Part shown: one piece after another, positions 1,058 through 64,000 of the stretch
Position numbering within the stretch: position 1 is the first letter of the stretch
Layout of the letters: every line of letters begins with the position of its first letter
Assembly: GCF_049075655.1 (NCBI RefSeq)
Contig: NZ_CP157522.1
Coordinates: 96,001 to 160,000 of the forward strand
Direction: 5' to 3'
Origin: Methanothermococcus sp. Ax23
GTDB taxonomy: Archaea; AGJL01; Methanococci; Methanococcales; Methanococcaceae
DNA length: 64,000 bases
Notes under the pieces: generated by a model
The model's database searches: none
What the model saw: only the letters and a program-made list of their open reading frames with translations
Told to the model about the DNA's origin: nothing
Translations under genes and position numbers: made by a program

Positions 1058-1702
1058 TTATTTTTCAATATCCATTTTTAAAACACTATATCCAACATAT
1101 CCAATAGCACAAACTGCCAATGGCTCAAATATTCCAAATACTGCCAAAATCAGCGAAATCGCAAATATTGCCATTCCTATCTTATTTGGATACTTTGGAT
1201 ATTTAATATCGCTTATCATTAATAATCCAAATACTAATGTCAATATTGGAACAATTATATCGGTAAAATTATATCCTATAACATTGGAATATTTTAAAAA
1301 CAATTCACAGATAATGCTTAGAACCAGAGCTCCCGCAGGTATGGGAAGTCCAACAAAATATTTAACATCCAATATACCAAATCTTGCCAACCTCAGAGCT
1401 CCGCATATGAGAAATACCAATGAAGTAATTAAGCTAAATGTTCCTTCGAAATAGTAATAAACTAAATAAGCAGGAGCTACCCCAAAACTAACAACATCAC
1501 AGATACTGTCCAGTTCTGCCCCAAAATCTGACACAGTATTTGTTTTTCTTGCAACATAGCCATCCATAGCATCAAAAACTATTGCTATATATATAAATCT
1601 GAAATCATGAAACAATATGGCAAGCATACCAAAAACAATATTTAAAATAGTTACATAATCCGATATTGTAATAATATCCTTAATTTTAAACATTTTTATC
1701 AT
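1058..1702 (-). CDS. pssA: CDP-alcohol phosphatidyltransferase (archaetidylserine synthase)
   Basis: DAMDGYVAR...FGAELDSICDVVSFGVAP signature, RLARF, GLPIPAG. The start may be 1693. Confidence 0.9.
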   Translation of the reverse strand: MIKMFKIKDIITISDYVTILNIVFGMLAILFHDFRFIYIAIVFDAMDGYVARKTNTVSDFGAELDSICDVVSFGVAPAYLVYYYFEGTFSLITSLVFLICGALRLARFGILDVKYFVGLPIPAGALVLSIICELFLKYSNVIGYNFTDIIVPILTLVFGLLMISDIKYPKYPNKIGMAIFAISLILAVFGIFEPLAVCAIGYVGYSVLKMDIEK

Positions 1703-1818
1703 CTTTTTTTATTTTTATTTTCCTTTTTCTTTTTAGGTTTTAGTCTTACTTTTTTATTTTTATTTTATATTTTTCATATTAAATTTGTTAAAATATATAT
1801 AAAATTATATAAAAATAA

Positions 1819-2388
1819 CTATAACTTTTCATAAAGTCGATTGATACATTCTCTTGATTTTTCAAGCTTCTTATTTCCAATATTTAATAACATTTTTAAA
1901 TAATTATCATCCACTAGGAGCTCACCATTTATGCCTATTGGAACATCCATTTTATATGTGCTTAAAATTTCAACTATTATTCTCCTATCTGTTATGGATT
2001 TTATGGACGATGCCTTTAAACCGTTATGAATTGCAAGTTCGAGAAGTTTTTTGGCATGAAATATATCCTTTGAAGCAACATGTAAAATTGGAGAATTCAT
2101 TACAAAAACCATGGTTTCAAAATCTTCTGATTTTTTGTTAATCGCTTTAAATAATTCTTCTTCGTTGGCATAGTGGTGCCATTTTCCAAGCCATTTTGAA
2201 TATATCTTCGGATTTTTATTCTTTGGAAATTCCATAATTCCGCATCTTCCTATACAGGAGCTCGTTGTATAATAATTTTCCATTTCGTTTATTTTATCCA
2301 CTATGAACATTACCTCTTTATCTACAAAATTGTTTTTTATTGCCTCTTTTAGCTTTTCCATGGTTCTTTTTTTATCTTCTTGAAACAT
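1819..2388 (-). CDS. taw3: tRNA wyosine methyltransferase TYW3/Taw3
   Basis: YYTTSSCIGR, KWHH and PILHV motifs. ATG at 2388 follows a GTGA RBS. Confidence 0.88.
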   Translation of the reverse strand: MFQEDKKRTMEKLKEAIKNNFVDKEVMFIVDKINEMENYYTTSSCIGRCGIMEFPKNKNPKIYSKWLGKWHHYANEEELFKAINKKSEDFETMVFVMNSPILHVASKDIFHAKKLLELAIHNGLKASSIKSITDRRIIVEILSTYKMDVPIGINGELLVDDNYLKMLLNIGNKKLEKSRECINRLYEKL

Positions 2389-2672
2389 GATTTCACTGAT
2401 GTTATTTATCAATTATATTAAAAATTATGAAATTATAATAATAATTGTAATGATGCAATAGTGATATAAAAAATAGCGGTATAATAATGATATAATGCTA
2501 AAAATTGAATTTATAATTTATATTTAAACATACAGCTTATAAAAATTACGCCAGAAATAAATGCAACAATTCCCCCATATACAAGGGTTATTTAGGATGA
2601 TTTGCCATAATATCCCCATATAAAAAAACATTTTTATTTTAATCCCAACCCCATAAAATAAATAATATACAA

Positions 2673-3707
2673 TTAAATAATGATGTCAATAATTTCTCCG
2701 CACTCTGGACATTTTGGAGTTCCTAATGATATATCTAAATTGTTTGTTATTATTGAAAATCCAGTTCTATCAATTAGCAGAGCTCCGCAGTTTGGGCAGT
2801 ATGTATTTTCTCCCCCATGACCTGGGATATTTCCAACATATACATATTTTAAACCTTCTTCCAGTGCCAATTCCCTTGCTTTCACAAGTGTTTCCACAGA
2901 AGTTGGTGGAACATCGGTTAATTTATAATCTGGATAAAATCTCGTAAAATGAAGTGGGGTTTCTTTACCTAATTTGTCCTTCACAAATTCTATTATATAT
3001 CTTATATCTTCCATGTTGTCGTTGTATGATGGTATTATTAAATTGGTTATTTCTACATGGATGCCCAATTTCTTTGCAACGATGCATGTTCTTAATACAG
3101 GTTCCAACTTTGCAGAGCATATTTCCTTATAGAATTTTTCATTGCCTTTTATATCTATATTCATGGCGTCTATTTTCAAATGTTTAAGGGGCTCCTCTTC
3201 TATATACCCATTTGTTACCATTACATTATATAATCCCTTTTCCCTTGCAATATTTGTTGTATCATGCATAATTTCATAAAAAATCGTTGGTTCTGTGTAG
3301 GTATATGCTATTCCATCGCATTTATATTTTAAAGTAGTTTCTACAATATCTTTGGGGTATATTTCATTATATGGGAGTTCATCCGGTGGAAACTGGCTTA
3401 TCTGCCAATTTTGACAGTGTTTGCATCTAAAATTGCAACCTCCTGTGGCAATTGAAAACACGGATGAACCTGGGTAAAAATGAAATAGTGGTTTTTTCTC
3501 TATGGGGTCAATTGCAGCAGAACAAATCTTTCCATAGTTCATAGCATACAATATCCCCCGTATATTTTCTCTCCCCCTACAAAATCCTCTTTTCCCCTCA
3601 GGTATTATACAGTGCCTTGGGCACAGGTTACATTTAATTTTATTATCTCCCATGGACTCATAAAACATTGCCTCATGAAGTTTTGATTGCATAATTTTAG
3701 CCCCCAT
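2673..3707 (-). CDS. amrS: AmmeMemoRadiSam-system radical SAM enzyme (PflA-like)
   Basis: N-terminal CxxCPRxC, DPIEKKPLFHF, CNFRCKHCQNW radical SAM motif, C-terminal CPNC/CPEC. Confidence 0.88.
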   Translation of the reverse strand: MGAKIMQSKLHEAMFYESMGDNKIKCNLCPRHCIIPEGKRGFCRGRENIRGILYAMNYGKICSAAIDPIEKKPLFHFYPGSSVFSIATGGCNFRCKHCQNWQISQFPPDELPYNEIYPKDIVETTLKYKCDGIAYTYTEPTIFYEIMHDTTNIAREKGLYNVMVTNGYIEEEPLKHLKIDAMNIDIKGNEKFYKEICSAKLEPVLRTCIVAKKLGIHVEITNLIIPSYNDNMEDIRYIIEFVKDKLGKETPLHFTRFYPDYKLTDVPPTSVETLVKARELALEEGLKYVYVGNIPGHGGENTYCPNCGALLIDRTGFSIITNNLDISLGTPKCPECGEIIDIII

Positions 3708-14394: not shown

Positions 14395-14603
14395 TACATA
14401 AATCCTGTCTAAAATTAAACAATAAAGCCAAAACTAAAAGAAAAAATCATTAAGGAAGAGGTGTCAATAATTTAGAAGGATATTAAATGAGAGGAGCTCC
14501 TCCTTATATATAATATATGGCGGAGCTCTGATAATGAAATTTATAAAATTAATCTTTTAACCATGATGGTGGTTAAGGCTAAGTTTAGAAAATAGGTGAT
14601 TTC

Positions 14604-15659
14604 ATGGAATTTTTTAATAGAAAAAAGGAATTAGAAGATTTAAAAAAACTACTGTTGTTTGAACCTAATTTGATATATTTTATATATGGCCCTATAAATA
14701 GTGGCAAAACCACTTTAATAAATGAAGTAATTAAAAATTTAGATGAGGAATATGTTGCTTTTTATATAGATTTAAGAGCTCACTTTATATCAAAATATGA
14801 TGAGTTCGTGAGGGTTTTATTTGATGTTTCATCTTATGACAGTAGGAATATTAAAAAATACTTTAAAGATTTGTTAATTGATATGCCACACAGTTTGGGG
14901 GGTATTCCAATACCTAAAACACTATTAAATGAAATATTGGATGAGAATAAATCAGAGGATGTATTTAATTATATACTAAATGTTTTTGAGAATTTAAAAA
15001 ATAATGGGAAAAAGCCAATATTGATAATCGATGAATTGCAGGTAATAGAAGATTTAAAAATAAATGGATATTTGATTTATAAGTTGTTTAATTTCTTTAT
15101 AAGTTTAACTAAACAAAGGCATCTTAGCCATGTGGTTGTTTTAACCTCCGACAGCTTGTTTATAAATAAAGTATATAATGAGGCAATGTTGCAAGACAGA
15201 TGCAAATACTACTTAGTGGATGATTTTGATTATAAAACTACGAGAGAGTTCCTAATAAAAAATAATTTTGGCTCAGAGGAAATAGAAACTGTATGGAATT
15301 ATTTTGGTGGAAAACCTATAAAATTAATAGATGTAATTCAGGAAAAATTACTTGGCAATGATGTTGAAGAATACTGTAAAAGTTCGTTAATATTCAGAGC
15401 TCGGCAGATAAAAGATGAATTGTATAAATTGAAAAGAGAGGACGAAAACTTATTTAAAAATGTTTTAGGTTTATTTGAGAGATATAAGCATGTTGATAGT
15501 TTTATCTATGAAGAATTAACAGATGATGTAATTTGGGCAGTTAAAAAGAATATATTATTCGTCAATATTAAAACTGGGGAGTTAAAACCACAGGGGAAGT
15601 TGGAGTTGTTGGCAATTAATGAAGTGTTGAAGGATTTTGTAGTGTCGGAGCTCCGATAA
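14604..15659 (+). CDS. Archaeal ATPase (MJ-type multicopy P-loop ATPase family)
   Basis: FFNRKKEL, Walker A GPINSGKT, Walker B IIDELQ, GGKP. Confidence 0.85.
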   Translation: MEFFNRKKELEDLKKLLLFEPNLIYFIYGPINSGKTTLINEVIKNLDEEYVAFYIDLRAHFISKYDEFVRVLFDVSSYDSRNIKKYFKDLLIDMPHSLGGIPIPKTLLNEILDENKSEDVFNYILNVFENLKNNGKKPILIIDELQVIEDLKINGYLIYKLFNFFISLTKQRHLSHVVVLTSDSLFINKVYNEAMLQDRCKYYLVDDFDYKTTREFLIKNNFGSEEIETVWNYFGGKPIKLIDVIQEKLLGNDVEEYCKSSLIFRARQIKDELYKLKREDENLFKNVLGLFERYKHVDSFIYEELTDDVIWAVKKNILFVNIKTGELKPQGKLELLAINEVLKDFVVSELR

Positions 15660-17915: not shown

Positions 17916-18605
17916 ATGGATAAAAAACTTTTAGCATTGATACCAGCGTACAACGAAGAGAAATCCATTAAAAAAGTAATTGAGAACATTAAAGATACTG
18001 TTGATGGAATTTTAGTTGTTGATGATGGTAGTGAAGATAACACCACGAAGTATGCAAAAGAATGTGGTGTTGAAGTAATCACATTTAGAGAAAATAGAGG
18101 TAAGGGGGTTGCAATTAGAGAAGGTTATAAATATTTTATAAATTCCCCCTATGACATATGCTTTATTTTTGATGCCGATGGGCAATATAGGAAAGACGAT
18201 ATTATGCCAGTTTGCTTCCCTATTATAAATGATGAGGCAGATATCGTTGTAGGTTCAAGATTCTTAGGAGAATATACCGAAGGAGCGAATATTAATTACA
18301 AAATTAGAATCGCATGTAATAATATATCCACAACAGTAACGAGGATTATGTCGGGAGTTCCAACAACCGATTCACAAAGTGGTTTAGTTGCAGTTAATAA
18401 ATATGCTGCTAAACAGCTTGATTTAAATGCTAATAGATGGGGGATTCATCAGGAAATCATAATAAGGGCAGGTAAAAAAGGTTTGAGATACAAAGAAGTC
18501 CCAATCATTTTTGAAAAAAGAATGCACGGAGTTTCTCGTTTAAAGGTCTTGAAATATCCTTTCACAGCATTTCCTGTTATGTTAAAGGCTTGGATGAGGA
18601 AATAA
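17916..18605 (+). CDS. GT2 glycosyltransferase (DPM1-like)
   Basis: IPAYNEE, VVDDGS, DADGQ, GSRF, TDSQSG. Confidence 0.88.
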   Translation: MDKKLLALIPAYNEEKSIKKVIENIKDTVDGILVVDDGSEDNTTKYAKECGVEVITFRENRGKGVAIREGYKYFINSPYDICFIFDADGQYRKDDIMPVCFPIINDEADIVVGSRFLGEYTEGANINYKIRIACNNISTTVTRIMSGVPTTDSQSGLVAVNKYAAKQLDLNANRWGIHQEIIIRAGKKGLRYKEVPIIFEKRMHGVSRLKVLKYPFTAFPVMLKAWMRK

Positions 18606-18658
18606 ATTTTGAGCAATTTACACATTAAAAACAAGATATTGGTTAATAGGGGAATATT

Positions 18659-19783
18659 ATGAAAATTGGAATTATAACAGATAGGTTAAACAGACCTTTA
18701 ACTGGTGTTGGGAACTATGTATATCACTTAACAAAAGAACTTTTAAAAATTGATAAAGATAAAATTTACTTAATAAATTACAATACTTTTGGAGATCCAC
18801 ATGTGGATAATAAAATAATGATTATAAAAAATTATTTTAGAAGTTTTCCAAAACCGTATTATTTTTGGAACTGGTATTTAAATTACAAATTGAACATAAC
18901 CAATATTGGACTTGATGTAATTCATAGTCCAGAAAGTAGCACGATTTATATGAAACTCAGATTTCAAAAGAAAATTATAACCGTTTATGACATTAGGCAG
19001 TATTTATATCCCGATATCTCAAACACAATGAACAAGTACGGATATAAGATATTTTTTCCAAAAACTCTAAAATCCGCCGATAAAATAATATCAATATCTC
19101 AACATACAAAAAATGATTTAATAAACCATTTTAAAATTCCAGAAGATAAAATAAAAGTAATACACTTGGCAGCAAATGAAAACTACAAACCATTAAGAGA
19201 AAATGAGATAAACGAAATAAAACAAAAATACAATCTAATTTATCCATTTATATTATATGTTGGAACATTAGAACAACACAAAAATATTCCAACATTATTA
19301 AAAGCACTTTACAAACTTAAAAAAATGGGGACGAAACATAAATTAGTAATCACTGGTAAAAAAGGATGGAAATACAAATCCATCTTTGAAACCATAGAAA
19401 AACTAAACCTACAAAAGGATGTAATATTCACTGGCTATGTTCCAGATGAAGATTTACCTGCTTTATATAACGCTGCTGATTTATTCGTTTATCCTTCTAT
19501 TTATGAAGGATTTGGATTGCCACCATTAGAGGCAATGGCATGTGGAACGCCAGTTGTAACTTCAAACACTTCCTCTCTACCCGAAGTGGTTGGAGATGCT
19601 GGAATAATGGTTAATCCTTATGATGTTAACGAGTTAGCTAAGGCAATGTATGAAGTTTTAACTAACAATGGATTAAGAGAAGAGCTATCTAAGAAAGGTT
19701 TAGAAAGAGCCAAACTATTCAGCTGGAAAAAATGTGCAGAAGAACATTTAAAAGTTTATGAAGAAGTTTATAATGTGAAATGA
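18659..19783 (+). CDS. GT4 glycosyltransferase, paralog 1
   Basis: [18 protein letters not shown] motif. Confidence 0.9.
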
Positions 19784-20900
19784 GGGGAAGAATGAAGATT
19801 GGAATTATTTCAGAAAAATTAAATCCTCCAAGAACAGGCGTTGGAAATTATTTATACAATACATTGAAGGCTACTGCTAAATTACAAAATAAGAATTATT
19901 GTCTAATTAACTATCAACATAATAATTTAATTCCAAGTGCGAATCTGATAGTTGTAAAAAAACCATTTAATAATAGATACTTATGGTATCAAATTTTGCC
20001 CATAAATAACAGTTTAGAAAATTTAGATATAATTCACAACCCTTTTCAAATTCCAACAATTCTTAATTTTAAACAAAAATATATAATGTCTGTTTTAGAT
20101 TTAATACAAATATTATTTCCAAAAGAAATTGAAAAAAGTGTTTATTTGTTTCAAAAAATTATACTTTCGAAATCCATAAAATCCGCCGATAAAATAATCT
20201 CAATTTCACACCATACAAAACAAGATATAATAAAATACTTTAAAATTCCAGAAGATAAAATAAAAGTAATTCACTTAGCAGCAAATGAAAACTACAAACC
20301 ATTGAGAGAAAATGAGATAAATGACATAAAACAAAAGTATAACTTAAACTATCCCTTTATATTATATGTCGGAACCTTGGAACCAAGAAAAAACATTCCA
20401 ACTCTATTAAAAGCACTTTACAAACTTAAAAAAATGGGGACGAAACATAAATTAGTAATCACTGGTAAAAAAGGATGGAAATACAAATCCATCTTTGAAA
20501 CCATAGAAAAACTAAACCTACAAAAGGATGTAATATTCACTGGCTATGTTCCAGATGAAGATTTACCTGCTTTATACAACGCTGCTGATTTATTCGTTTA
20601 TCCTTCTATTTATGAAGGATTTGGATTGCCACCATTAGAGGCAATGGCATGTGGAACGCCAGTTGTAACTTCAAACACTTCCTCTCTACCCGAAGTGGTT
20701 GGAGATGCTGGAATAATGGTTAATCCTTATGATGTTAACGAGTTAGCTAAGGCAATGTATGAAGTTTTAACTAACGATGGATTAAGAGAAGAGCTATCTA
20801 AGAAAGGTTTAGAAAGAGCCAAACTATTCAGCTGGAAAAAATGTGCAGAAGAACATTTAAAAGTTTATGAAGAAGTTTATAATGTGAAATGAGGGGAAGA
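19070..20900 (+). repeat. About 720 bp direct repeat between the GT4 3' halves (19070-19791 vs 20179-20900)
   Basis: Offset 1109 bp. The last ~490 bp are identical apart from about 2 substitutions seen, and include the stop codon and downstream RBS (aatgtgaaatgaggggaaga). Confidence 0.92.
19792..20892 (+). CDS. GT4 glycosyltransferase, paralog 2
   Basis: Same GT4 C-terminal motifs. ATG at 19792 follows GAGGGG. Confidence 0.9.
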
Positions 20901-20902
20901 GG

Positions 20903-22057
20903 ATGAAAAATAAAAAACTTATTCTTAAATTTATTAAACATATCTTTGATATATTATTTTTTTGGAAGAAATTTAAAAAATTTAAAAAGGAAAAAGTGAA
21001 AAAAATATTAGTAATTTCTGAATATTTGGGTGATGTTGTAGTTACATCTTCTTTTCTAAAAAATTTGAGATATAATTTTCCAGAAGTAGAGATTACACTC
21101 CAATGTAGAAAAGAAGCAAAAGATGTTGCTGAATGTATTCCATTTGTTGATAAAATAATTGTAGTGAATTTTCCATTTGGTTTGAAATTTAGAGAAAGTG
21201 ACGGATATTTGGCGATACTAAAGTATATAATAAGAAATCTTAATAAATATGATGTAGTGTTTAGTTTAAGTGGAACTATTTACAATCCAATTTTAATTTT
21301 TTGTGGGCGTTATTTAGTTGGATCTGAAGGAAAATTCTCTTTTTCATTCGATTTTTTATTGGATAAAAAAGTAAAAAGAGATAAGAATAAACATGTAGTT
21401 GAGAGATATTTAGATTTACTAAAAGCTTTAAATCTAAAAATATATGATAAAAGATTAGAACTAAAAATAGATGAACAATATTACAAATCATTAAAGAATA
21501 AACTGAATTTTATAGATTTTGATAAAGATTTTGTTATAGTATGTCATCCTCGTGGAGGTCATGTTTATAAAGACTGGCCTTTTGAATACTGGAATAAATT
21601 AAATAATAAAATTCTCAAGGATTTTCCAGATGTTAAAATATTGTATGGTGGTTCTAAAAACGAATATAACGATTTAAATAAAAACATTAAGTTCGATAAC
21701 AAAAATATTTATAACATTGCTGGTGAATTATCATTAAAAGAATACTTCGCATTAATTGATTTATGTGATTTATTAATAAGCGTAGATACATCAGCAGTTC
21801 ATGCACGAGCAGCATTTAATAAATATTTAATTGGATTATATTCTGGAAACAACGCCAACGAATGGGATCCCTACACAGATAAAAAAACTGTATTTAAAGA
21901 TGTAAGTTGCGATAAATACCCTTGCTATCTATTACAAGCACAACTAATGGGATTAAAACCATGTCCTTATGGTTATCCCGCACCATGCATGAAAAATATA
22001 AAACCTGATGAAATTTATAAAAAGGTTAAGGAATATATTTTAAGAAATAAAAAATAA
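20903..22057 (+). CDS. GT9 (heptosyltransferase-family) glycosyltransferase
   Basis: LGDVV, HVVERY, KDWP, LAG-like IAGELSL, ISVDTSAVH, C-terminal CxxC..CM. Confidence 0.82.
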   Translation: MKNKKLILKFIKHIFDILFFWKKFKKFKKEKVKKILVISEYLGDVVVTSSFLKNLRYNFPEVEITLQCRKEAKDVAECIPFVDKIIVVNFPFGLKFRESDGYLAILKYIIRNLNKYDVVFSLSGTIYNPILIFCGRYLVGSEGKFSFSFDFLLDKKVKRDKNKHVVERYLDLLKALNLKIYDKRLELKIDEQYYKSLKNKLNFIDFDKDFVIVCHPRGGHVYKDWPFEYWNKLNNKILKDFPDVKILYGGSKNEYNDLNKNIKFDNKNIYNIAGELSLKEYFALIDLCDLLISVDTSAVHARAAFNKYLIGLYSGNNANEWDPYTDKKTVFKDVSCDKYPCYLLQAQLMGLKPCPYGYPAPCMKNIKPDEIYKKVKEYILRNKK

Positions 22058-22067
22058 TTGTGAGAAT

Positions 22068-25312: not shown

Positions 25313-25325
25313 AATTTCACCAAAA

Positions 25326-26366: not shown

Positions 26367-26376
26367 AAGTAATCCC

Positions 26377-45185: not shown

Positions 45186-45227
45186 TTAACTTATATAAAT
45201 ATAAATAAAGGTAAATGGTGATATAAA

Positions 45228-46256
45228 ATGGCAAAACAAAAAATAGAACCTGTTGAGATACAATATGATAAAGAAGTTGTTAATGAGTTTAGAGAAAAAA
45301 TTTACTCCATAATACCGAGTGAATACTTCCAAGATGAATTTGACAAGAGAACACCAAATGTAATAAAAGTGGCAACTATTAGGGAAACTACAGGATATTT
45401 AATAAACCGTTCAACTGAATCAGACGAAGTGATAAGCACATCAATTGATAACAAAGAACCTGTTGTAATTCCATCAAGAAAATTAAAATCAAAGGAAAAA
45501 TTAACTGGTTTAATATTGTGCAGAAAATACCATGTTGTTCATCCAAAATTGGAGTATAATTTTATAAAAGAATCAAAACAATTGGCAAATCCAAATTCCA
45601 TAATATTCGGTGATTCAGTAACTCAATCCAACGATTCCACAGGTCTCCCAGCAAGGGCGATATATGAATGGGCGTATTCAATAAGAGATAAAGACGAAAT
45701 AACCGAAGAATTTACCCATAACGCACTAAGTGAAGAGGGGACAATGTGGGACAAAGACAAGGGTTCTCAAAGGCAGAGTTTGTATGAAATTCAATATATT
45801 AAACCAGGAGTTTATTTCCCACAGTTTTTAACATTCTATGATATTACACCAGAGGGTTTTCTGCATACAATAATTTCCCATGTAAAAACCATACGGTATG
45901 GAGCTCAGCAAAATGTAATGGATGCAAACATGAAAAACAATATAATTGCCATTGCATTGGATACCTTTGAACCACCTGTATCTTCCTATTCAATATCCAA
46001 AGAATTTACGGGAGAGGTTAATTTTGAGAACATTCGGAAATTTATTACAGATAAATTAAATAACAATTCATCTGTTGTTATTAAAGACAAAGAATTGGAA
46101 GAGTTTAATTCATTAGTAGATGAATATTTGAATGATGATGAAAAACTAAAGCAGTTGTATTTAAAAATGCTCAATGATAGCATAAATTATATGATAAAAT
46201 GTAACATATTAAAAAATAAAGAAGTGGATAATTTATTGAAAGAATTGGGTGTCTAA
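45228..46256 (+). CDS. csc2: Type I-D Cas7 (Csc2)
   Basis: IRET.GY, IPSRKLK..EK, IFGDS, THNA.SE.GTM, PGVYFP, RYGAQ. Confidence 0.82.
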   Translation: MAKQKIEPVEIQYDKEVVNEFREKIYSIIPSEYFQDEFDKRTPNVIKVATIRETTGYLINRSTESDEVISTSIDNKEPVVIPSRKLKSKEKLTGLILCRKYHVVHPKLEYNFIKESKQLANPNSIIFGDSVTQSNDSTGLPARAIYEWAYSIRDKDEITEEFTHNALSEEGTMWDKDKGSQRQSLYEIQYIKPGVYFPQFLTFYDITPEGFLHTIISHVKTIRYGAQQNVMDANMKNNIIAIALDTFEPPVSSYSISKEFTGEVNFENIRKFITDKLNNNSSVVIKDKELEEFNSLVDEYLNDDEKLKQLYLKMLNDSINYMIKCNILKNKEVDNLLKELGV

Positions 46257-46257
46257 T

Positions 46258-46899
46258 ATGCTTAAACATTACAAAATAACCCTTCTTTCTCCATTATTTT
46301 CTTATAACAAAACAGAAGGGGGAGTAGCTTCAACTGAGCCGTTTATTGGAGATATTGCCTTAGACTATGCATTAAATTTTAATTTAGCTAAAAAAAGAGA
46401 ATACACATATCAGGTGAAAAATAAGCCTAATTACGAAGAAATAAAAGAATTTGGTTTCTTCTGGACGGTTGGAAGACCCATTGATGTTGAAAAAACAAGA
46501 ATATATGCAAAAAAAACTTCTGAAATCTCTGATTATATGGTTAGAAAGAATATTATTGAACAGATGGGGAAGGGATTATTTAAAAATTATTTCCACATAC
46601 AGGGAATCAAGGAGGGTTCTACTTTTGAAGCATCCCTATGGATGGATGATAAATCCATTAATCTTCCAGAGCGATTTACATTAAGGGTAGGCACAGGTCG
46701 AGAATGTTTGTTACTGTTGGAGGAAAAAGATACTAATGACAATAACAATTCAGAGCTCTGGTTAAATCTCTATACTATTAAAAAAATATTTGGAAAGGAT
46801 ATAAAATTGAGGGAGAATCAAAATATAAAATTTGTTTTATCTAACTACATATTGATTACCAATTGTAAGGATGATGATGTTTTAAAATTATTTGCTTAA
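46258..46899 (+). CDS. csc1: Type I-D Cas5 (Csc1)
   Basis: SPLF, IGDIAL.YA, C-terminal RVGTGR; lies between csc2 and cas3'. Confidence 0.72.
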   Translation: MLKHYKITLLSPLFSYNKTEGGVASTEPFIGDIALDYALNFNLAKKREYTYQVKNKPNYEEIKEFGFFWTVGRPIDVEKTRIYAKKTSEISDYMVRKNIIEQMGKGLFKNYFHIQGIKEGSTFEASLWMDDKSINLPERFTLRVGTGRECLLLLEEKDTNDNNNSELWLNLYTIKKIFGKDIKLRENQNIKFVLSNYILITNCKDDDVLKLFA

Positions 46900-46929
46900 T
46901 TTTTTTATTTAATTGAATTGAGGGGTATT

Positions 46930-48909
46930 ATGGAATGCTTAAATATTATTGTTTCTAAAAAATGTCTTCCTTTTGGAAATAAAATAATAGATAAATATAA
47001 TATAACCCTTCACAGGTTTCAAGAGATTTTTTATTCAGATATTGCTGAATTAAATAATATAAATTTTATCGTAGCTCCTACTGGGGCAGGTAAAACTTTT
47101 TCTTTTTCATTTCCAATTATTTATGCGGAGGATAATGGCTTTTTTACAAAACCAAGGGGTTTGATTGTAGTTCCCACAAATGCATTGGTAATGGATATTG
47201 AAAAAACCCTTAAAAATTTGGGAATAAAAACATCAGTATTAACAGGGAGCTCACTTACAGAAAAGGGTAGAAAAAGAGGGGAAGAATTAATTGAAATTAC
47301 AAAAAATAGCGAAATTGTTATAACAAATCCAGATATAATAAATTACTTGTTGCATGGTGGATATCACAGATTTGGGCACGTAAAAAATTTCCCGGATTGG
47401 AGCGAATTTTTTAGTAAATTTGATTACATTATTTTTGATGAATATCATCTATATGATGAGGAACAGCTTGGGACAATCTTAGTTTTATTTTTATCTACAT
47501 GGAACTATTTTAAAAAAATAAGGTGGTTTTTTGTTTCAGCTACCCCTGAAGAAAATTTAATGGAGCTCTTCAAAGAACATGGTATTATGTCAAATATAAT
47601 TACACAGCCATTGGACAACAATGGCAGTGGAAGAACAATCCAGGGGGAGATGGATATTGAATTTATTAAAATCTCAAAAAATATTGAAAGAAGTTTGTTT
47701 GGATATTTAATAACCGATGGAAAGCTAAACTACAATGTAAAAATGGAAATAATGTCATCATTATCAAAAAATGAAAAGGTTTTGATAATATTTAATTCAT
47801 TAAGGGATGCTATGAACTTTAAATATATACTTAAACAGGAATTGAAGGAAGAAGGCGTTAATATATGGATAGATACAGGATTGCAAACAAAAGAAAAAAA
47901 GGAAAATAACGACCTTAACCAAATGGAAAATGCCGATATTATAATTACAACTTCAAAGTCAGAAGTCGGAGTAAATTATCCAGTATCATTGTGCTATATG
48001 GATTCTGGGAGGTATTTAAGAAATTTTATGCAGAGGATTGGAAGGGTTGGAAGAGGCAGGGAAAAATGCAAGATATACTGCACTATCAATCCAAAAATAT
48101 ACAATAGACTAGCAGAAAATATCAATAATCAAATAGATTATTATGATTTTGTGGATTTAATGAAAAACGCCTTTGAAGATAAGGAATTTAAAAAAGATAA
48201 AATTCCTAAATTCTGCGGTGCGATTCTGTGGAGTCTTATAAACTCAATGGAAGAATGCCTATACAAGCAATCATACAATAGAAGAAAAATTTTAATGGAT
48301 TTAGCCGATAAATTTCAATACTATTGGGCATTCCATCACTTAAATAAAAAGATAAAGGCGATTGAAGACGATATTGACGAGGATATTGTTGATGAGGATG
48401 TGAGGCATAATCTATTGAAATGGTGGAAGACTATAAAAAATTCATTTAAGAGATTTAGAAATGACAGCATTATTTGGAAAGTAATATATGAGGATGGAAA
48501 AGAAACAGAATATGATTTAATATGGCTCTTAAATAATGCGTTTGTCAGAGTAGATAGAGAAAATAAAATTATTTTTATTGAAGATTTTAGGGATAAAAGG
48601 GAAAATGTAGTTGTAGGCATTGATACATATTCATTATTGGAGAATATCATGTCTGCCACAACTATCGGTGGAAACAATAAAGCTGAATGGTTTAAATTTA
48701 TATATTCTGACTATATTGGAGATATATTCATAGAAAAATTTGAGCAATGGAAACTTCATGCAAGAAAATATTTTGAAGATAAGGAATTTTTTGAAAATCT
48801 GACAAATGATATTGAAACGCTTTCCCCCATATACTCAAAAAAAAGAATTAAAATTTATGATTTAAAAGTTAATTTGGGGGAGATATTTAATGATGATGAC
48901 ATTCTTTAA
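46930..48909 (+). CDS. cas3: Cas3' helicase lacking an HD domain
   Basis: APTGAGKT, PTNAL, DEYH, SAT, QRIGRVGR. Confidence 0.88.
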   Translation: MECLNIIVSKKCLPFGNKIIDKYNITLHRFQEIFYSDIAELNNINFIVAPTGAGKTFSFSFPIIYAEDNGFFTKPRGLIVVPTNALVMDIEKTLKNLGIKTSVLTGSSLTEKGRKRGEELIEITKNSEIVITNPDIINYLLHGGYHRFGHVKNFPDWSEFFSKFDYIIFDEYHLYDEEQLGTILVLFLSTWNYFKKIRWFFVSATPEENLMELFKEHGIMSNIITQPLDNNGSGRTIQGEMDIEFIKISKNIERSLFGYLITDGKLNYNVKMEIMSSLSKNEKVLIIFNSLRDAMNFKYILKQELKEEGVNIWIDTGLQTKEKKENNDLNQMENADIIITTSKSEVGVNYPVSLCYMDSGRYLRNFMQRIGRVGRGREKCKIYCTINPKIYNRLAENINNQIDYYDFVDLMKNAFEDKEFKKDKIPKFCGAILWSLINSMEECLYKQSYNRRKILMDLADKFQYYWAFHHLNKKIKAIEDDIDEDIVDEDVRHNLLKWWKTIKNSFKRFRNDSIIWKVIYEDGKETEYDLIWLLNNAFVRVDRENKIIFIEDFRDKRENVVVGIDTYSLLENIMSATTIGGNNKAEWFKFIYSDYIGDIFIEKFEQWKLHARKYFEDKEFFENLTNDIETLSPIYSKKRIKIYDLKVNLGEIFNDDDIL

Positions 48910-48917
48910 GGGATATT

Positions 48918-49436
48918 ATGGATTTAACAAAGTCATTCAGGGACTTAAAAATCAGAGGAACACAGATAAACTACTACTTCATCTGTAAAACAAAACTTTA
49001 TCTTTTTTCGAAAAATATCCAAATGGAAAAAGAGAGCGATATTGTAGAGCTCGGCAATATAATTCATAGGAGGTCCTACAAAAACGAAAAAAGGGATGTG
49101 ATTATTGACAGTATAGCCATAGATTTTATAAAGAATAATGACGGAGCTCTGGAAATTCACGAGGTCAAAAAATCCGATAAAATGAAAACAGCAGATAGAT
49201 ATCAACTTCTCTATTATTTGTTTTATCTAAAAAAATTAGGCATAGAGGCTATTGGAATTATAAATTATCCTTCAAAACATAAGGTAGAAAAAATAACATT
49301 AACTGAAAAAGGCGAAAAAGAATTGATGAAAATTATTGAAGATATTGAAAACATAATAAATCGTGATGAACCGATAAAACCCGAAAGAAAGAGCTATTGC
49401 AAAAAATGTGCATATTATGAATTTTGCTTTTCATAA
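48918..49436 (+). CDS. cas4: Cas4
   Basis: YYFICK, ID, EVKK, QL.YY, CKKCAYYEFC. Confidence 0.93.
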   Translation: MDLTKSFRDLKIRGTQINYYFICKTKLYLFSKNIQMEKESDIVELGNIIHRRSYKNEKRDVIIDSIAIDFIKNNDGALEIHEVKKSDKMKTADRYQLLYYLFYLKKLGIEAIGIINYPSKHKVEKITLTEKGEKELMKIIEDIENIINRDEPIKPERKSYCKKCAYYEFCFS

Positions 49437-49451
49437 TACGCGGGGGAAAAT

Positions 49452-50417
49452 ATGAAATCGAATAAATACATTACAACCGATGGAAAACTTGTAAGAAAAG
49501 AAAATACCATATATTTTATAGATAAAAATGGGAAAAGAACTCCAATTCCAGTTGAAAAAATATATGCAATATATAGCTATGGTAGTTTGTCATATACTTC
49601 AAAGGTCGTTGAATTATTGGCAAAATATAATGTTCCGATTCATTATTTTAATAGAAATGGTTGGTATGTGGGGAGCTTCTATCCAAAGGGGGAGCGATTT
49701 TCTGGAAATGTTGTGGTGCATCAATCCAGTCATTATTTAGATAAATACAAAAGGAACCACCTTGCAAAGAAATTCGTTGAAGGTAGTGCTAAAAATATCC
49801 ATCGGAATCTAAGTAGATATAAGGTTGATTTTCCAATCGACGACATAATGAAGAGGTTGGATAATTCAAGCAACATAACGGATATAATGTCTGTTGAGGC
49901 ATTGATGAGGAATGAATACTACGGAAATTTTGATAAGATAATAAATAACTTTCAATTTGAAAAAAGAAGCAGAAGACCGCCACACAACGAGATAAATGCT
50001 TTAATCAGTTTTGGGAACTCGCTTTTATATGCCACAGTAATTACTGAAATATTCAACACATACCTTCATCCAACAATATCCTACCTGCACGAGCCGTCGG
50101 ATAGAAGATTTTCACTTGCCCTTGATATTGCCGATGTTTTTAAGCCGTTATTGGTGGATAGGGTAATATTTAATCTAATAAATAGGAAAATAATAAGGGA
50201 AGACCATTTTGAGAAGGATTTGAATTTCTGTCTGTTAAATGACGAAGGGAGAAAATTATTTTTAAGTTATTATAAAAAACAGCTTGAAAATACTATAAAA
50301 CATAGAAAATTAGGTAGAAATGTCTCATATCAGAGATTAATAAGATTGGAGTGCTACAAACTCCAAAAACATATTTTAGGGATGGAAAAATACGAACCTT
50401 TTATAATTTGGTGGTGA
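49452..50417 (+). CDS. cas1: Cas1
   Basis: NALISFGNSLLY, SYLHEP, LALDIADVFKP. Confidence 0.95.
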   Translation: MKSNKYITTDGKLVRKENTIYFIDKNGKRTPIPVEKIYAIYSYGSLSYTSKVVELLAKYNVPIHYFNRNGWYVGSFYPKGERFSGNVVVHQSSHYLDKYKRNHLAKKFVEGSAKNIHRNLSRYKVDFPIDDIMKRLDNSSNITDIMSVEALMRNEYYGNFDKIINNFQFEKRSRRPPHNEINALISFGNSLLYATVITEIFNTYLHPTISYLHEPSDRRFSLALDIADVFKPLLVDRVIFNLINRKIIREDHFEKDLNFCLLNDEGRKLFLSYYKKQLENTIKHRKLGRNVSYQRLIRLECYKLQKHILGMEKYEPFIIWW

Positions 50418-51787: not shown

Positions 51788-54700
51788 GTTAAAATCAGAC
51801 CATAGTGGGATGGAAATTCAAAGAAGGATGCAATAGGTAGGAAAATAGAAAGGGGTTAAAATCAGACCATAGTGGGATGGAAATCGTGAAAAGGATAATA
51901 TATATATATTAGCTCTATGGCGTTAAAATCAGACCATAGTGGGATGGAAATATATCAGTTGGATTCAGTATCAATTTTGGCGTTTGAAGTTAAAATCAGA
52001 CCATAGTGGGATGGAAATATCCAGCCTTTATCATCATTATATGTAATTCTCGGACGTTAAAATCAGACCATAGTGGGATGGAAATATTTAACATATGTAT
52101 AGGTACGCAATATACCAAATCCGTTAAAATCAGACCATAGTGGGATGGAAATGTTTTTCTTATGCTTTTGTTTTCCCAAAGCTTTGCTTTGTTAAAATCA
52201 GACCATAGTGGGATGGAAATATTCTTTTATATTTACTTCGTATATGTCTTTTTCAATGTTAAAATCAGACCATAGTGGGATGGAAATTTCTCTCTATTGT
52301 ATTACTATGGTAATACTAATATATAGTTAAAATCAGACCATAGTGGGATGGAAATCAAAATGTAAATGATGCCCTTAAATCCGTTTTAAAGGGTTAAAAT
52401 CAGACCATAGTGGGATGGAAATGCGTCATAGTCACACTTACATATAGTGTCTATATTTTGGTTAAAATCAGACCATAGTGGGATGGAAATAATGAAAGTG
52501 CGTCAAAATCAATTATTTCAATTTCGTTAAAATCAGACCATAGTGGGATGGAAATAAAAAGCGTATTAGACGATATTAATCTCAACATGTTAAAATCAGA
52601 CCATAGTGGGATGGAAATTTTTTTTCCAAAGTTAATTATAAATATTGTTTTTTTTAGTTAAAATCAGACCATAGTGGGATGGAAATTCGTCAGTTGGTTC
52701 AAGTGTTCCGTCCTCTATGGTTAAAATCAGACCATAGTGGGATGGAAATCAATAACTGCTTCATTAATTGTAATTGTAACATCTAGTTAAAATCAGACCA
52801 TAGTGGGGTGGAAATTTAAATCAAATACGATTATTGTATTGTTCTTTTGTAAAGTTAAAATCAGACCATAGTGGGATGGAAATTTTATAGGAGAGGGGTT
52901 TGTTTTTTCCCACACTCCCACGTTAAAATCAGACCATAGTGGGGTGGAAATTTAATTCGTCTAAGTTCATAATATCACCTTTCATTCATTCGTTAAAATC
53001 AGACCATAGTGGGATGGAAATTTTGATTCTTGGTTTATTATTCCAACATGTCCAGATTGTTAAAATCAGACCATAGTGGGGTGGAAATTTCATTATCCAA
53101 CAATAGCGTAATTGATGACGATTTAGTTAAAATCAGACCATAGTGGGATGGAAATAATATTGAGATTGTAGGGATGAGTAGTAGCATATCCCCGTTAAAA
53201 TCAGACCATAATGGAAATATAAAAACTGCAGAAGAAATATATAAACACTTGAAAAAGGTTAAAATCAGACCATAGTGGGATGGAAATTTTTATGACTGAA
53301 ACATATTCTTTTATGGTATATTTGTTAAAATCAGACCATAGTGGGATGGAAATAATATATTTTCATACTATTTAAACCTTACTAAAAAATAGTTAAAATC
53401 AGACCATAGTGGGATGGAAATTTTCATGAAGAAGAACTAAAAAATGATGAGGATTTAAGTTAAAATCAGACCATAGTGGGATGGAAATATTTATTGGCTC
53501 GCTTCGCTCGCCAATCAATAGGAACCTGTTAAAATCAGACCATAGTGGGATGGAAATTCTCTTGCGTATTTGTGGGGTGGTGGGGGTTCTCTTCCGTTAA
53601 AATCAGACCATAGTGGGATGGAAATCTATCTTATGGGGGTATTCTGGAATTACGAGAGTTTGTTAAAATCAGACCATAGTGGGATGGAAATTCAAAACAA
53701 GGTTGGGCTTTTGCCCTGACAATATATGAAGTTAAAATCAGACCATAGTGGGATGGAAATTAGGAAGTTTATTCGTTCTATTCTGATCGATAAACTCGTT
53801 AAAATCAGACCATAGTGGGATGGAAATTTTGGATGTTTAATTGAAAGTGGATTTATTAAAGTTAAAATCAGACCATAGTGGGATGGAAATATGGGAATGA
53901 GTTAAAATACTGCGTATTTGTTCTGAACGTTAAAATCAGACCATAGTGGGATGGAAATCATATAAAAAAAGCGGCAGAGATGAGGCTCACAGGTTTGTTA
54001 AAATCAGACCATAGTGGGATGGAAATTCATTAATTCAATAATGATGTTAGACTTTGTTTTTACCGTTAAAATCAGACCATAGTGGGATGGAAATGTTTGG
54101 ATCGTTGCCAGGATGAAAACAACAGTAGGTTAAAATCAGACCATAGTGGGATGGAAATGATGGTCCTGTTGAGTTTATTGGGTGATTGGGTGATTGTTAA
54201 AATCAGACCATAGTGGGATGGAAATACTGCATATCTTCGTCCTTGTTTTGCATTATCAATATAGTTAAAATCAGACCATAGTGGGATGGAAATATCTGTA
54301 ATTACGTAATCGATTAAATAGAAATCGTTAAAATCAGACCATAGTGGGATGGAAATCTAACAACGTTGTTGGTAAAATCATGGGATAATCCAAAGTTAAA
54401 ATCAGACCATAGTGGGATGGAAATTTTCTTTTAAAAATTCATGGTAGAGCCTGTGTGGTTAAAATCAGACCATAGTGGGATGGAAATTTTCTTTTAAAAA
54501 TTCATGGTAGAGCCTGTGTGGTTAAAATCAGACCATAGTGGGATGGAAAGTATTTTCAGATATTGGCGTTATTGTCAAATATTGAGAGGTTAAAATCAGA
54601 CCATAGTGGGATGGAAAGCGATTTGGGTATTGGCGGATTACTTGAGGGGGTGGTAGTTAAAATCAGACCATAGTGGGATGGAAATTCCTGCTGGTGCAAG

Positions 54701-55266
54701 GACAGTCATCAGGGGCTGTTGTGTTAAAATCAGACCATAGTGGGATGGAAATGGTGAAATGATACTAAACGCATTTAATTTTATATGGTTAAAATCAGAC
54801 CATAGTGGGATGGAAATATCGTCTGGCAATCTAGATAATATTTCTGCTGGGCAGTTAAAATCAGACCATAGTGGGATGGAAATTTGTCGTTCTTTATATT
54901 GTTAAAATCAGACCATAGTGGGATGGAAATTGATGTTGAACCAAGTAGCATTGAAGAATTCAAAGAGTTAAAATCAGACCATAGTGGGATGGAAATTATT
55001 TTGTTGAATACATTTTTATTTTTCGAGATAATTGTTAAAATCAGACCAAGTGGGATGGAAATAACTCAATAATTAACTTAACGGATAATGAATATAGAAA
55101 GTTAAAATCAGACCATAGTGGGATGGAAATAGAAATTATAGAGCGTATGGCAGATATACTTTTAGAGGAGTTAAAATCAGACCATAGTGGGATGGAAATA
55201 CGATATTGAATGCACAAGTAAGTTATGGAAGTTGGTGTTAAAATCAGACCATAGTGGGATGGAAAT
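51788..55266 (+). CRISPR. CRISPR array, about 53 repeats / 52 spacers
   Basis: 30 bp repeat GTTAAAATCAGACCATAGTGGGATGGAAAT. Spacers are mostly 33-40 nt. Count is manual. Confidence 0.98.
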
Positions 55267-55586
55267 AAAATCAAAGGATGGCAAGATAAATATTTACATT
55301 ACAGTTATAAATCATCTCTATGGAGTTTATTCAAATGAGCTCAGGACATATGGAAAAATACAAAATGTATAAAAAGGACTATAACAACCTAAGGCATACA
55401 ACAATAGTAGCTCACGGGTTTAAAGGGATAAAAAATTATTAAATAAAATGCTAACAGATAATCCAAATTAATAAAGATATTGATAAGTATTTCAAAACTA
55501 TTAAATCAGAATTCTTCAATATTGCAGACAAAGATGAATCGAATATATTTGACAAACTAAATGATGAGATAATATATAATCTATAA
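55267..55586 (+). pseudogene. Possible decayed C-terminus of a CARF-HEPN (Csx1/Csm6-like) ribonuclease
   Basis: 55374-55430 translates to KDYNNLRHTTIVAHGFKGI (HEPN R-x6-H-like, AHGF). Another frame ends ..NIFDKLNDEIIYNL*. Broken by stops and frameshifts. Confidence 0.45.
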
Positions 55587-62719: not shown

Positions 62720-62752
62720 ATTTACACCTGATATATATCTATCTTATTTCAG

Positions 62753-63133
62753 TTATTGTTCATTTAATTTATATTCTTCTAAAACACGGTTTATTTTATC
62801 AAGCAATTCCTTTTTTTCAAAGGGTTTTATGATGTAATCATCCACATGTTTTTTAACGCCTATTTCAATATCTTTTTCCTGAGCAAGGGCTGTTAAAGCT
62901 ATTACAGGCGTATTTTTCCACTCTTTTTTTGACCTTATAATATCTAAAACTTCCCAGCCACTCATTCCTGGCATCATTATATCTAGCAATACTAAATCAG
63001 GCATACATTCCATTAATTTTATAGCCTCATACCCATCAGGTGCTGATAAAACCTCGTAATTATTTACTTCAAGTATTATTTTCACAAGATTTAATATATC
63101 CTCGTTATCTTCAACCACAAGAATTTTAGCCAT
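62753..63133 (-). CDS. Single-domain response regulator
   Basis: ILVVED, LLDIMMPGMSG, LTA, KPF. Confidence 0.92.
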   Translation of the reverse strand: MAKILVVEDNEDILNLVKIILEVNNYEVLSAPDGYEAIKLMECMPDLVLLDIMMPGMSGWEVLDIIRSKKEWKNTPVIALTALAQEKDIEIGVKKHVDDYIIKPFEKKELLDKINRVLEEYKLNEQ

Positions 63134-63495
63134 TTTATCTCCCTTGATTGTATAATTATATAGTAAAAAATTATAGTTGCATTGATGGTAAATAGTCAAT
63201 TATAATTTAATAAAATCATCTGGGAAATATTTGCACCGAATATATAAATAAATTCTTACATATGGATTATTCTCCAAAATTTATAAAATAATATTTTTTT
63301 ATAGTTTATTTACCTTAATATATTATGTTTATGAAAATTTAAATAAATATACATTTATTTGAAAAATTCAGAATTTATAAGTATAACTTAATAGATTGAC
63401 CATATTTAATTAACAATATAGTATTAATTACAGCTATTATAGTTTTATTAAAGTGTTGGTTATTTTATCAAACAAGTATATATGGCGGTGTTAAT

Positions 63496-64000
63496 GTGAG
63501 ATTCATAGAGTTCGGACAGGGATTTTCAGACGACGACAACCCACTAAAAGCAGGAGCTCATGCCACATCAAATGCATTAAAACAATTAAACAAATATTCG
63601 GAACACCCAAACATCGTATTTTTATTTTCCTCTCCTGATTATGACCCAGAGGAGATATTAAACGGGGTAAAACTTATAATGAATACCAAAACACCAGTTG
63701 TGGGGGGAAGTTCCAAATTTCAAATTGTGAATAATAAGCTACTAAAAAAAGGAGTGGGCGTTGGAATCCTGTCTTCAAAGTATATACATATAGGTGTTGG
63801 AGTGGGTTTGGGAGTATCTATAAATCCAAGAGAATCTGGGAAAAAAGCCATTCAAGATGCCGTGGAAAATCTTGGCATGATTCCAAAATTCGTCATGGTA
63901 TTTATGGACTTCTGTAAATTTGAAGAAGAGGTTTTAAAAGGCATAATCGATATCTTAGGTATTACAATCCCCATATTTGGCGGAACTACTACCGACGACT
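63496..64000 (+). CDS. FIST-domain sensor protein (3' end outside window)
   Basis: GTG at 63496 after GGCGGTG. The frame is open to the window end: VRFIEFGQG..FLFSSPDYD..PVVGGSS..PIFGGTTTDD. Confidence 0.7.
   Translation, partial: MRFIEFGQGFSDDDNPLKAGAHATSNALKQLNKYSEHPNIVFLFSSPDYDPEEILNGVKLIMNTKTPVVGGSSKFQIVNNKLLKKGVGVGILSSKYIHIGVGVGLGVSINPRESGKKAIQDAVENLGMIPKFVMVFMDFCKFEEEVLKGIIDILGITIPIFGGTTTDD

Follow-up and report, generated by a model that had tools for sequence, protein, structure and literature searches.

The genome of the methanogen Methanothermococcus sp. Ax23 (Archaea, Methanococcaceae) is punctuated from end to end by one six-letter palindrome, GAGCTC, and it is this word, its excess and its possible cause that concern us here. 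Our window, the whole 64,000-base stretch that was analysed (contig NZ_CP157522.1, positions 96,001 to 160,000, written G000:C1:96001-160000 below), holds exactly 77 copies, running from 1327-1332 to 63554-63559, against 3.00 +/- 1.32 in 100 dinucleotide-preserving shuffles of the same DNA, the largest of which gave 6 and none of which attained 77. An earlier, sequence-only reading of the window had counted about 77 copies by eye, a tally that proves exact, and had set their span at 1327 to 63549, correct at its start and short of the last site at its end. The 77 sites (1327..63559, no strand assigned) begin at positions 1327, 1396, 1918, 2258, 2780, 4613, 4874, 5221, 5240, 6143, 7291, 7606, 8066, 8564, 8808, 10193, 11092, 12821, 14494, 14523, 14776, 15397, 15648, 15691, 15868, 17743, 17848, 28946, 29054, 29115, 29182, 29408, 29480, 29718, 29754, 29778, 29843, 30414, 30496, 30767, 31218, 31696, 31845, 32412, 32602, 32695, 33628, 34054, 36605, 36825, 37705, 38137, 38352, 38659, 38962, 40220, 40235, 42098, 43266, 45901, 46753, 47247, 47563, 49047, 49144, 51021, 55337, 57002, 57193, 58365, 59490, 60139, 61217, 61388, 62143, 62327 and 63554.

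GAGCTC across the genome and against null models

The source genome (G000) comprises 1,670,680 bases on two contigs, C1 and C2, at a GC content of 31.9%, and that of the window ranges from 27 to 34% per 4 kb. Genome-wide there are 2089 copies of GAGCTC, or 1.25 sites per kb, where base composition predicts 125; the ratio of 16.75 is the highest of any hexamer, and the words ranked next overlap GAGCTC. Among the 16 words of the form NAGCTN it alone is raised (2089 vs 140-325 for the others), and the core AGCT stands overall at expectation because 41% of its copies sit within GAGCTC. With 2076 different 22-mer contexts among the 2085 sites on C1, the word is not a dispersed repeat, and an origin of that kind is ruled out. 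The flanks carry at most 0.22 bit of information per position, with a mild preference for G before and C after the site, the favoured form GGAGCTCC making up 333 of the 2089 copies. Longer palindromes, into which the sequence-only reading had the sites often extended, are barely commoner than chance: genome-wide 31.1%, 11.0% and 3.3% of sites are extended by at least one, two and three bases on each side, vs 28.3%, 8.0% and 2.3% by composition, and in the window 47 of the 77 are not extended at all, 21 are extended by one base per side, six by two and three by three. These last three are the very examples that reading had offered, the 12-nt palindromes GAGGAGCTCCTC at 14491-14502 and TCGGAGCTCCGA at 15645-15656 (13 copies genome-wide) and a third at 29751-29762. 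The excess of GAGCTC is real, strong and genome-wide, and the word itself is probably a driven one.

Reading frames were assigned from the longest open reading frames (ORFs) of at least 80 codons, taken greedily and without overlap, a crude caller that gave 1609 ORFs covering 87% of C1. Sites on C1 (n=2085) occur in all three frames, 1100 as GAG-CTC, 629 as xGA-GCT-Cxx and 225 as xxG-AGC-TCx, with a further 131 that are intergenic or at an ORF edge, and the density is 1.36 per kb in ORFs vs 0.59 per kb in intergenic or ORF-edge DNA. The window, with 37, 18 and 6 sites in the same three frames and 16 intergenic or at ORF edges, bears out the claim that all frames are used. The companion claim, that sites draw on GC-rich codons otherwise rare here, is right in part: CTC supplies 6.6% of leucine codons and has 1100 of its 2874 occurrences inside GAGCTC, and of GAG, GCT and AGC 12%, 10% and 7% lie inside sites. 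When codons are shuffled synonymously within genes, keeping both the protein and the codon usage of each gene, the ORFs retain 194 +/- 11 sites (maximum 217 in 30 shuffles) vs 1956 observed, an excess that is 10-fold overall and 7- to 13-fold in each frame. Markov models of orders 0 to 4 predict 124, 106, 160, 429 and 1303 copies on C1 vs 2085 observed. A 4.9-fold excess therefore remains under the 4-mer (order-3) null, and the order-4 model, which absorbs most of it (observed/expected ratio, O/E, of 1.6), is nearly circular, being built from counts of GAGCT and AGCTC that come mostly from the sites. The enrichment was to have vanished under a codon- and dipeptide-preserving or 4-mer Markov null if the sequence-only reading were mistaken; it persists under both. 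Synonymous shuffles, tripeptide usage and Markov models together support what that reading proposed, a DNA-level phenomenon of the kind seen in HIP1, the hyper-iterated palindrome of cyanobacteria (GCGATCGC), rather than a consequence of codons or dipeptides.

Where the peptide makes GAGCTC cheap to write, it is nearly always written: at 130 of 133 Gly-Ala-Pro, 70 of 71 Gly-Ala-His and 46 of 50 Gly-Ala-Gln positions. It stands at 180 of 275 Gly-Ala-Leu, 1101 of 3982 Glu-Leu and 225 of 1176 x-Ser-Ser positions. The rate of use is set by the number of synonymous choices that must coincide, and the cheap opportunities are nearly saturated. Relative to codon usage outside such contexts, the odds of a site are raised about 20- to 45-fold in most classes (range 7-365, highest where only two synonymous choices are needed), and 10- to 30-fold in G013, a GAGCTC-rich genome from another genus. 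At Glu-Leu the eleven other codon pairs keep their relative proportions beside GAG-CTC, as predicted if the process is reversible and rewards a single state. Words one base away from GAGCTC stand at 0.03-1.18 of synonymous-shuffle expectation and are not specially depleted, save where they include a word such as GATC that is avoided in its own right; GAGCAC, which most often replaces the site synonymously in the Gly-Ala class, is at 0.37, GAGCTT at 0.59 and the C-to-T neighbour GAGTTC/GAACTC at 0.83. Conversion of the very short patch (VSP) type, sought through depletion of these neighbours, left nothing beyond what the null itself yields.

Outside coding sequence, 14 of the 415 GGTGA-N4-ATG spacers between ribosome-binding site and start codon carry GCTC, giving GGTGAGCTCATG, and many intergenic sites lie just upstream of TATA-like runs. 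The pressure also reaches protein sequence. In 474 orthologue pairs between G000 and G005, a GAGCTC-poor member of the same genus, the site-compatible tripeptides [GR]-A-[PHQ] are twice as common in G000 (118 vs 58), with the controls [GR]-A-other at 681 vs 704 and other-A-[PHQ] at 433 vs 402, and Glu-Leu has the sixth highest composition-normalised ratio among 272 dipeptides.

Relatives, exchange and depleted regions

Five of the 31 genomes compared are rich in GAGCTC (G000, G003, G010, G012 and G013, with 1321-2089 copies), the remaining 26 having between 4 and 229; no rich case was added by a sample of 36 genomes drawn from across the phylum, all of them 85% complete or better, so that five of 36 show the trait. 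The replication protein A gene of the window (37570-39495, minus strand, identified by Pfam), which carries five sites, served as marker and as test locus for site conservation. In its tree of 30 genomes, from which G024 was left out because the search returned no locus for it, G000, G003, G012 and G010 form one clade (SH-aLRT 93), whose sister group consists of nine congeneric genomes with ordinary or low counts, and G013 is placed elsewhere, an arrangement that needs at least two changes of state. G013 repeats the pattern over its whole genome, with 1515 copies, use at 98 of 108 Gly-Ala-Pro positions and 1373 coding sites vs 165 +/- 15 in shuffles. In the poor sister clade GAGCTC is very low because its AGCT core is avoided, as with a restriction system: AGCT has an O/E of 0.11 in G005 (first 680 kb, 45% of the genome), and AAGCTT is reduced to 12-33 copies in G001, G002, G005, G007 and G008.

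The two rich lineages also share DNA. G000 and G013 have in common 29 segments outside ribosomal RNA (rRNA) genes, 42 kb in all, at 88-94% nucleotide identity vs a median protein identity of 76%, and they therefore seem to have exchanged DNA fairly recently; at that level the poor G005 of the same genus (680 kb compared) shares only rRNA with G000. The exchange could explain the trait in both lineages, and it would also be expected if GAGCTC favours exchange among its carriers. Among the segments at 88-94% identity to G013 (G000:C1:1550420-1562854 and about 25 others) is a methyl-coenzyme M reductase (mcr) operon whose proteins are 97-99% identical, far above the genomic median. The segments also carry nif-like genes, an integrase-like pair (99.5%) and genes for transporters, glycosyltransferases and surface proteins, and none of the genes read in them is an obvious hexamer reader.

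Along the genome, gaps between sites have a mean of 797 nt, a median of 532 and a coefficient of variation of 1.09, and per-gene counts, given the opportunities of each gene, have a near-binomial variance of 1.08; opportunity thus roughly dictates where sites lie. Variable regions depart from this and are poor in GAGCTC. The two most depleted blocks are one that encodes a RAMP protein of CRISPR type beside large ATPase-like genes (G000:C1:804269-814566, 4 sites vs 18.8 expected) and one of repeated cassette genes with shared modules, possibly of toxin/immunity type (G000:C1:750066-755907, 0 vs 8.7 expected). The window contains the longest GAGCTC-free stretch of the whole genome, 17854-28945 (11,098 nt between sites, GC 27%), in which none of 22 synonymous opportunities is used where 5.0 are expected (P = 0.0026, the region having been chosen post hoc as the largest gap), giving no more than modest support to a foreign origin. 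Within it lies a low-GC (27%) island, 17916-28789, where Pfam identifies six ORFs as glycosyltransferases of families 1, 2 and 9, and further a DUF2206 membrane protein, a UDP-galactopyranose mutase and a flippase-type polysaccharide-biosynthesis protein; it looks like a variable surface-glycan locus. Further along, a CRISPR array at 51788-55330, with about 53 repeats of 30 nt and spacers of ~37 nt, has no GAGCTC in 3543 nt, its spacers being foreign DNA, whereas the ORFs upstream of it (42573-50417), which are probably cas genes and include a DEAD/ResIII helicase at 46918-48909, carry sites.

The densest part of the window is a cluster of 12 sites in 1.56 kb (28946-30501), mostly non-coding, around small nucleotidyltransferase-like ORFs. 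Here lie two plus-strand copies of an intergenic element of ~73 nt, the first (29050-29122) reading GGAGCTCC ... CCTGAGTTCAG ... GGAGCTCC with its middle palindrome one base off, as GAGTTC, and the second (29714-29786) with all three palindromes intact (sites 29718, 29754 and 29778). Together they flank a truncated nucleotidyltransferase ORF (29273-29620), and similar 'CCCCCTTCGGAGCTCC' leaders stand before two 100-aa nucleotidyltransferase genes elsewhere (G000:C1:191124 and 1233660). The small contig C2 (7732 nt, GC 27%, four ORFs of at least 80 codons), which is probably a plasmid, has four GAGCTC vs 0.35 by composition, three of them as GGAGCTCC or GAGCTCC. As a separate observation, G000 avoids a wide range of palindromes relative to composition (GATC 0.03, GTAC 0.07, ACGT 0.10, CGCG and GCGC 0.13, CTAG 0.14), and all four CTNNAG and all four GTNNAC hexamers stand at 0.05-0.12 of synonymous-shuffle expectation (CTACAG 0.05), which suggests a long history with many restriction systems.

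Candidate readers and competing explanations

The explanation to which we lean, tentatively and short of an even chance, is molecular drive through uptake or recombination, exerted by a protein of restriction-grade specificity. A factor reading exactly GAGCTC in double-stranded DNA, with the precision of a restriction enzyme and presumably as a symmetric dimer, would give alleles that bear the word a transmission advantage. Fragments carrying it would be preferentially captured or recombined as DNA passes between cells of these populations, and the advantage would act as a uniform push wherever GAGCTC can be written harmlessly, in any frame, in ribosome-site spacers and in other intergenic DNA. 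Sites would then accumulate as has been proposed for the uptake signal sequences (USS) of Haemophilus, the DNA uptake sequences (DUS) of Neisseria and now HIP1, and no conserved methyltransferase would take part. USS, DUS and HIP1 have densities similar to the 1.25 sites per kb seen here, and USS have been reported to distort the proteome. We infer the drive itself, the protein and the route, and prefer uptake or recombination to repair because density, magnitude and proteome effects match those of USS and DUS and the current HIP1 proposal (PMC13756078), because no methylase or Vsr-type partner was found, and because the rich lineages show mutual gene flow. The poverty of sites in variable or foreign DNA (the glycosylation island, the RAMP block, the cassette block and the CRISPR spacers) is counted for drive as well. 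So are the like pattern in G013, whose sites are mostly not homologous to those of G000, and the retention of sites in G012. A bolder form of this explanation, which we consider doubtful, would make GAGCTC the first archaeal DNA uptake or self-recognition sequence, read by a methylation-independent receptor or recombination factor that channels gene flow among those Methanococcaceae that are rich in GAGCTC (the lineage of G013 and the Methanothermococcus subclade) and that has driven the word to near-saturated synonymous sites and shifted the proteome.

The reader was sought among restriction-modification enzymes because an all-or-none specificity for a 6-bp palindrome resembles theirs rather than that of transcription factors. 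Family scans of G000 gave no match to C5-cytosine methylases (PF00145), Vsr (PF03852) or RE_SacI, and nothing relevant among D12 methylases. The informative methylase families were PF00145, PF01555, PF02384 and PF02086 only, the control for PF05063 (MT-A70) having matched nowhere, and a partner from an unmodelled methylase family is possible. As candidate DNA methylases G000 has a single Type II-like N4/N6 enzyme (M1), one Type III Mod, one Type I HsdM and three proteins that are Eco57I/MmeI-like. M1 was rejected, its orthologues occurring in G003 and in five GAGCTC-ordinary Methanocaldococcus and being absent from G010, G012 and G013. So was the Type IIG enzyme M10 with its 216-aa neighbour: M10 recurs complete in G013 alone, a plasmid-like contig of G012 having part of it. 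A 110-aa Mrr-like nuclease, 96% identical between G000 and G013, was rejected too, since poor genomes also have it and G003 and G010 lack it. In G012 no Type II-like methylase matched PF00145, PF01555 or PF02384, the only matches being Type I-like and Type IIG; the one N4/N6 methylase of G010 bears no relation to those of G000; and no 5-methylcytosine (m5C) methylase scored above the cut-off in G000, G003, G010 or G012. The sequence-only reading had suggested an AGCT or GAGCTC methyltransferase, or methylation-directed conversion, and a phylogenetic correlation by which the enzyme might be recognised. These suggestions find no support here: M1 and M10 do not track the trait, and in the family scans no methylase follows the five rich genomes.

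The M10 locus (G000:C1:353653-357512) encodes an Eco57I/MmeI-like protein of 1069 aa and the downstream 216-aa gene. The C-terminal half of M10 and this neighbour have 90.5% DNA identity to G013, and the version on the plasmid-like contig of G012 combines the same N-terminal half with a different C-terminal part. A synteny-based subtraction, for genes shared by G000 and G013 and missing between conserved neighbours in G005, gave no discrimination, gene order being poorly conserved and 45% of G005 covered; its clean cases were small genes of nucleotidyltransferase type, a ribosomal-type protein and transporters.

Several points weigh against a drive by uptake or recombination. Neither a receptor nor any other gene was found to follow the five rich genomes, the three candidates (M1, M10 and the Mrr-like nuclease) having failed, and the ComEC import-channel family (PF03772) was matched in 0 of 31 genomes where the control matched in 10 of 14. 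Archaeal DNA import may use parts other than ComEC. Uptake specificity is not known from any archaeon. With just 6 bp, the word could tell self DNA apart only ~17-fold. GAGCTC also lacks the greater-than-random evenness of spacing that uptake sequences have, by either the coefficient of variation or the per-gene variance given above. The gene-flow contrast rests on 45% of one poor genome, G005, and C2 uses 1 of 21 synonymous opportunities vs 6.1 at chromosomal rates, which is compatible with uptake or with repair. Finally, accumulation driven by uptake, by repair or by weak selection predicts the same equilibrium, and sequence alone does not separate the three.

Biased repair or gene conversion inside the cell is the rival that survives best, though in itself rather unlikely. 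A sequence-specific nickase, glycosylase or mismatch enzyme would resolve heteroduplexes between genome copies toward GAGCTC, much as in VSP repair and with no exchange between cells; Methanococcales are polyploid. Its equilibrium signature is that of an uptake drive, restriction-grade specificity suits it, a force that reaches C2 does too, the site-poor variable islands are as expected if accumulation takes time, and it requires no uptake machinery where ComEC appears to be missing. Set against this, G000 yielded neither Vsr nor an m5C methylase, GAGTTC/GAACTC, the neighbour that deamination would produce, shows no depletion, the CCWGG excess left by VSP repair in Escherichia coli is far smaller than the effect seen here, and no candidate enzyme tracks the trait, the distribution of the Mrr-like nuclease included.

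Weak selection for a cellular function, of the sites or of their density, is a less probable account, under which GAGCTC would serve as a self-DNA mark that guards against a nuclease or directs one (Chi-like), as a loading or binding site for a nucleoid protein, or in chromosome organisation as proposed for HIP1. When G000 and G013 are compared over 1231 orthologue pairs (median identity 76%), 1665 G000 sites can be aligned and 402 of them coincide with a site in G013; at positions with a compatible peptide in both, 390 sites are shared vs 276.5 expected if independent. In favour of a function, for Glu-Leu the chance of a site in G013 is 194/604 given one in G000 vs 175/1329 without. Of nine G000 sites in one 5-kb locus, G012 (84% nucleotide identity) keeps eight, G003 six, G010 three, and G013, G002 and G008 none. 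A search for periodicity of the HIP1 type (10-90 kb) found a 53.6-kb spectral peak in the opportunity-corrected occupancy of G000, which, with three settings tried, 1, 3 and 0 of 400 redraws equalled, and the position of many intergenic sites upstream of TATA-like runs would also suit a function. But conservation of positions between the rich lineages looks ordinary, at 20-32% vs 14-17% for pooled control hexamers of the same composition, with 13 of 41 controls as good in frame 0. The periodicity, moreover, is treated as unexplained because it is absent in G013 (269 of 400 redraws reach its peak), sites spread as opportunity alone predicts, and close relatives do without GAGCTC or avoid its core. 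Partial sharing and retention among close kin therefore speak for a force at work in both lineages that preserves sites between moderately distant genomes; the individual positions are not ancient.

A methylation link of the HIP1 type, in which an orphan methyltransferase would mark GAGCTC or AGCT and the mark would drive conversion or uptake, we judge improbable. HIP1 is recognised by two methylases (PMC4390886 and PMC13756078), and PMC11033074 lists AGCT-specific N4-methylcytosine methylases for several archaea. G000 has the predicted Type II-like methylase M1, and the sister clade avoids AGCT, so enzymes reading the core circulate in the genus. Against the link stand the distribution of M1 (lacking in three rich genomes, present in five ordinary ones), the Type I-like and Type IIG repertoire of G012, the unrelated enzyme of G010 and the missing m5C methylases. 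In addition, the methylome of Methanococcus aeolicus, a species whose GAGCTC richness is not established, comprises CTAG, GTNAC, ACGT, GCACY and CGAG, and not GAGCTC, in the portion of PMC10113651 that describes it.

A role at the RNA level, with self-complementary GAGCUC pairing with other copies or serving as the target of an RNA enzyme, is very unlikely: 94% of sites are in ORFs and the palindrome is present in RNA whichever strand is transcribed, yet the enrichment extends to intergenic DNA, including stretches upstream of TATA-like sequences, G-U-compatible variants are not tolerated (GAGCTT at 0.59), and strict palindromy fits a protein reading duplex DNA better. That the excess is an artefact of assembly or a by-product of composition, codons, dipeptides or restriction avoidance is hardly credible, for although the genome avoids very many palindromes, distorting word usage, and order 4 leaves an O/E of only 1.6, the 10-fold excess survives protein- and codon-preserving shuffles in every frame, the order-4 model is itself made of site counts, tripeptides and the lower-order Markov models refute the idea, and the same excess recurs in five independent assemblies.

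Meaning and comparison with known systems

A few groups of bacteria have short words that are hyper-iterated (HIP1, USS, DUS and Chi), and the cause of HIP1 is still debated after thirty years. GAGCTC adds an independent case from the archaea, and its signature is very clean: a single exact hexamer nearly saturates its cheap positions and has measurable effects on amino acids. Within a single genus one clade piles the word up and its sister is ordinary or avoids the AGCT core; cultured members with complete genomes stand on both sides of this contrast, which makes the cause directly testable, and the lack of a conserved methylase sets GAGCTC apart from the link to methylation around which most thinking on HIP1 turns. 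In practical terms, SacI sites are useless for cloning or mapping in these genomes, GAGCTC density is a marker of long-resident as opposed to recently acquired DNA, and, when genetic systems for thermophilic methanogens are used, recoded or foreign genes without the word might show a different behaviour. Full-text literature searches, supplementary files not being covered, found no description of a GAGCTC excess in methanogens, which agrees with the sequence-only reading, and the words GAGCTC, archaea and Methano are absent from the text, supplementary files aside, of the 2015 survey of HIP by Elhai (PMC4390886).

The sites of Type II restriction-modification systems (SacI/AluI type) share with GAGCTC an exact, all-or-none 6-bp palindrome, and AGCT is indeed avoided in the sister clade (O/E 0.11 in G005); such sites are avoided, however, whereas GAGCTC is piled up, and G000 has no RE_SacI match. 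Campylobacter uses methyl-marked RAATTY, likewise a 6-bp palindromic word, for self-recognition of DNA in transformation, but depends for it on an orphan methylase, and no methylase tracks GAGCTC. The VSP repair of E. coli, which yields an excess of CCWGG, shows that a sequence-specific repair bias can raise one word genome-wide, yet it needs an m5C methylase and Vsr, neither found in G000, depletes the T-variant (0.83 here) and has a much smaller effect. USS and DUS, thought to accumulate by molecular drive, come nearer, with a density close to 1 per kb, placement by protein tolerance, an effect on peptides and strain-specific islands that are poor in sites; they differ in being 9-12-nt non-palindromic words with known receptor or machinery, where GAGCTC is a 6-bp palindrome without even spacing and with no ComEC match in 31 genomes. 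HIP1 itself differs in having 8 bp rather than 6, a cyanobacterial rather than an archaeal host, and a phylum-scale distribution where the GAGCTC trait is found in 5 of 36 genomes; no cognate methylase is conserved among the rich genomes, positional conservation across the two rich lineages is not clearly above that of control words, and the periodicity of G000 is not replicated in G013. The likenesses are nonetheless extensive: each is an exact short palindrome occurring about once per kb, in all frames and between genes, far above codon-aware expectation (15-300-fold for HIP1 according to PMC5861425, with GAGCTC somewhat below at 10-17-fold) and distributed clade-wide with exceptions. In the nature and scale of its excess, GAGCTC is closest to HIP1.

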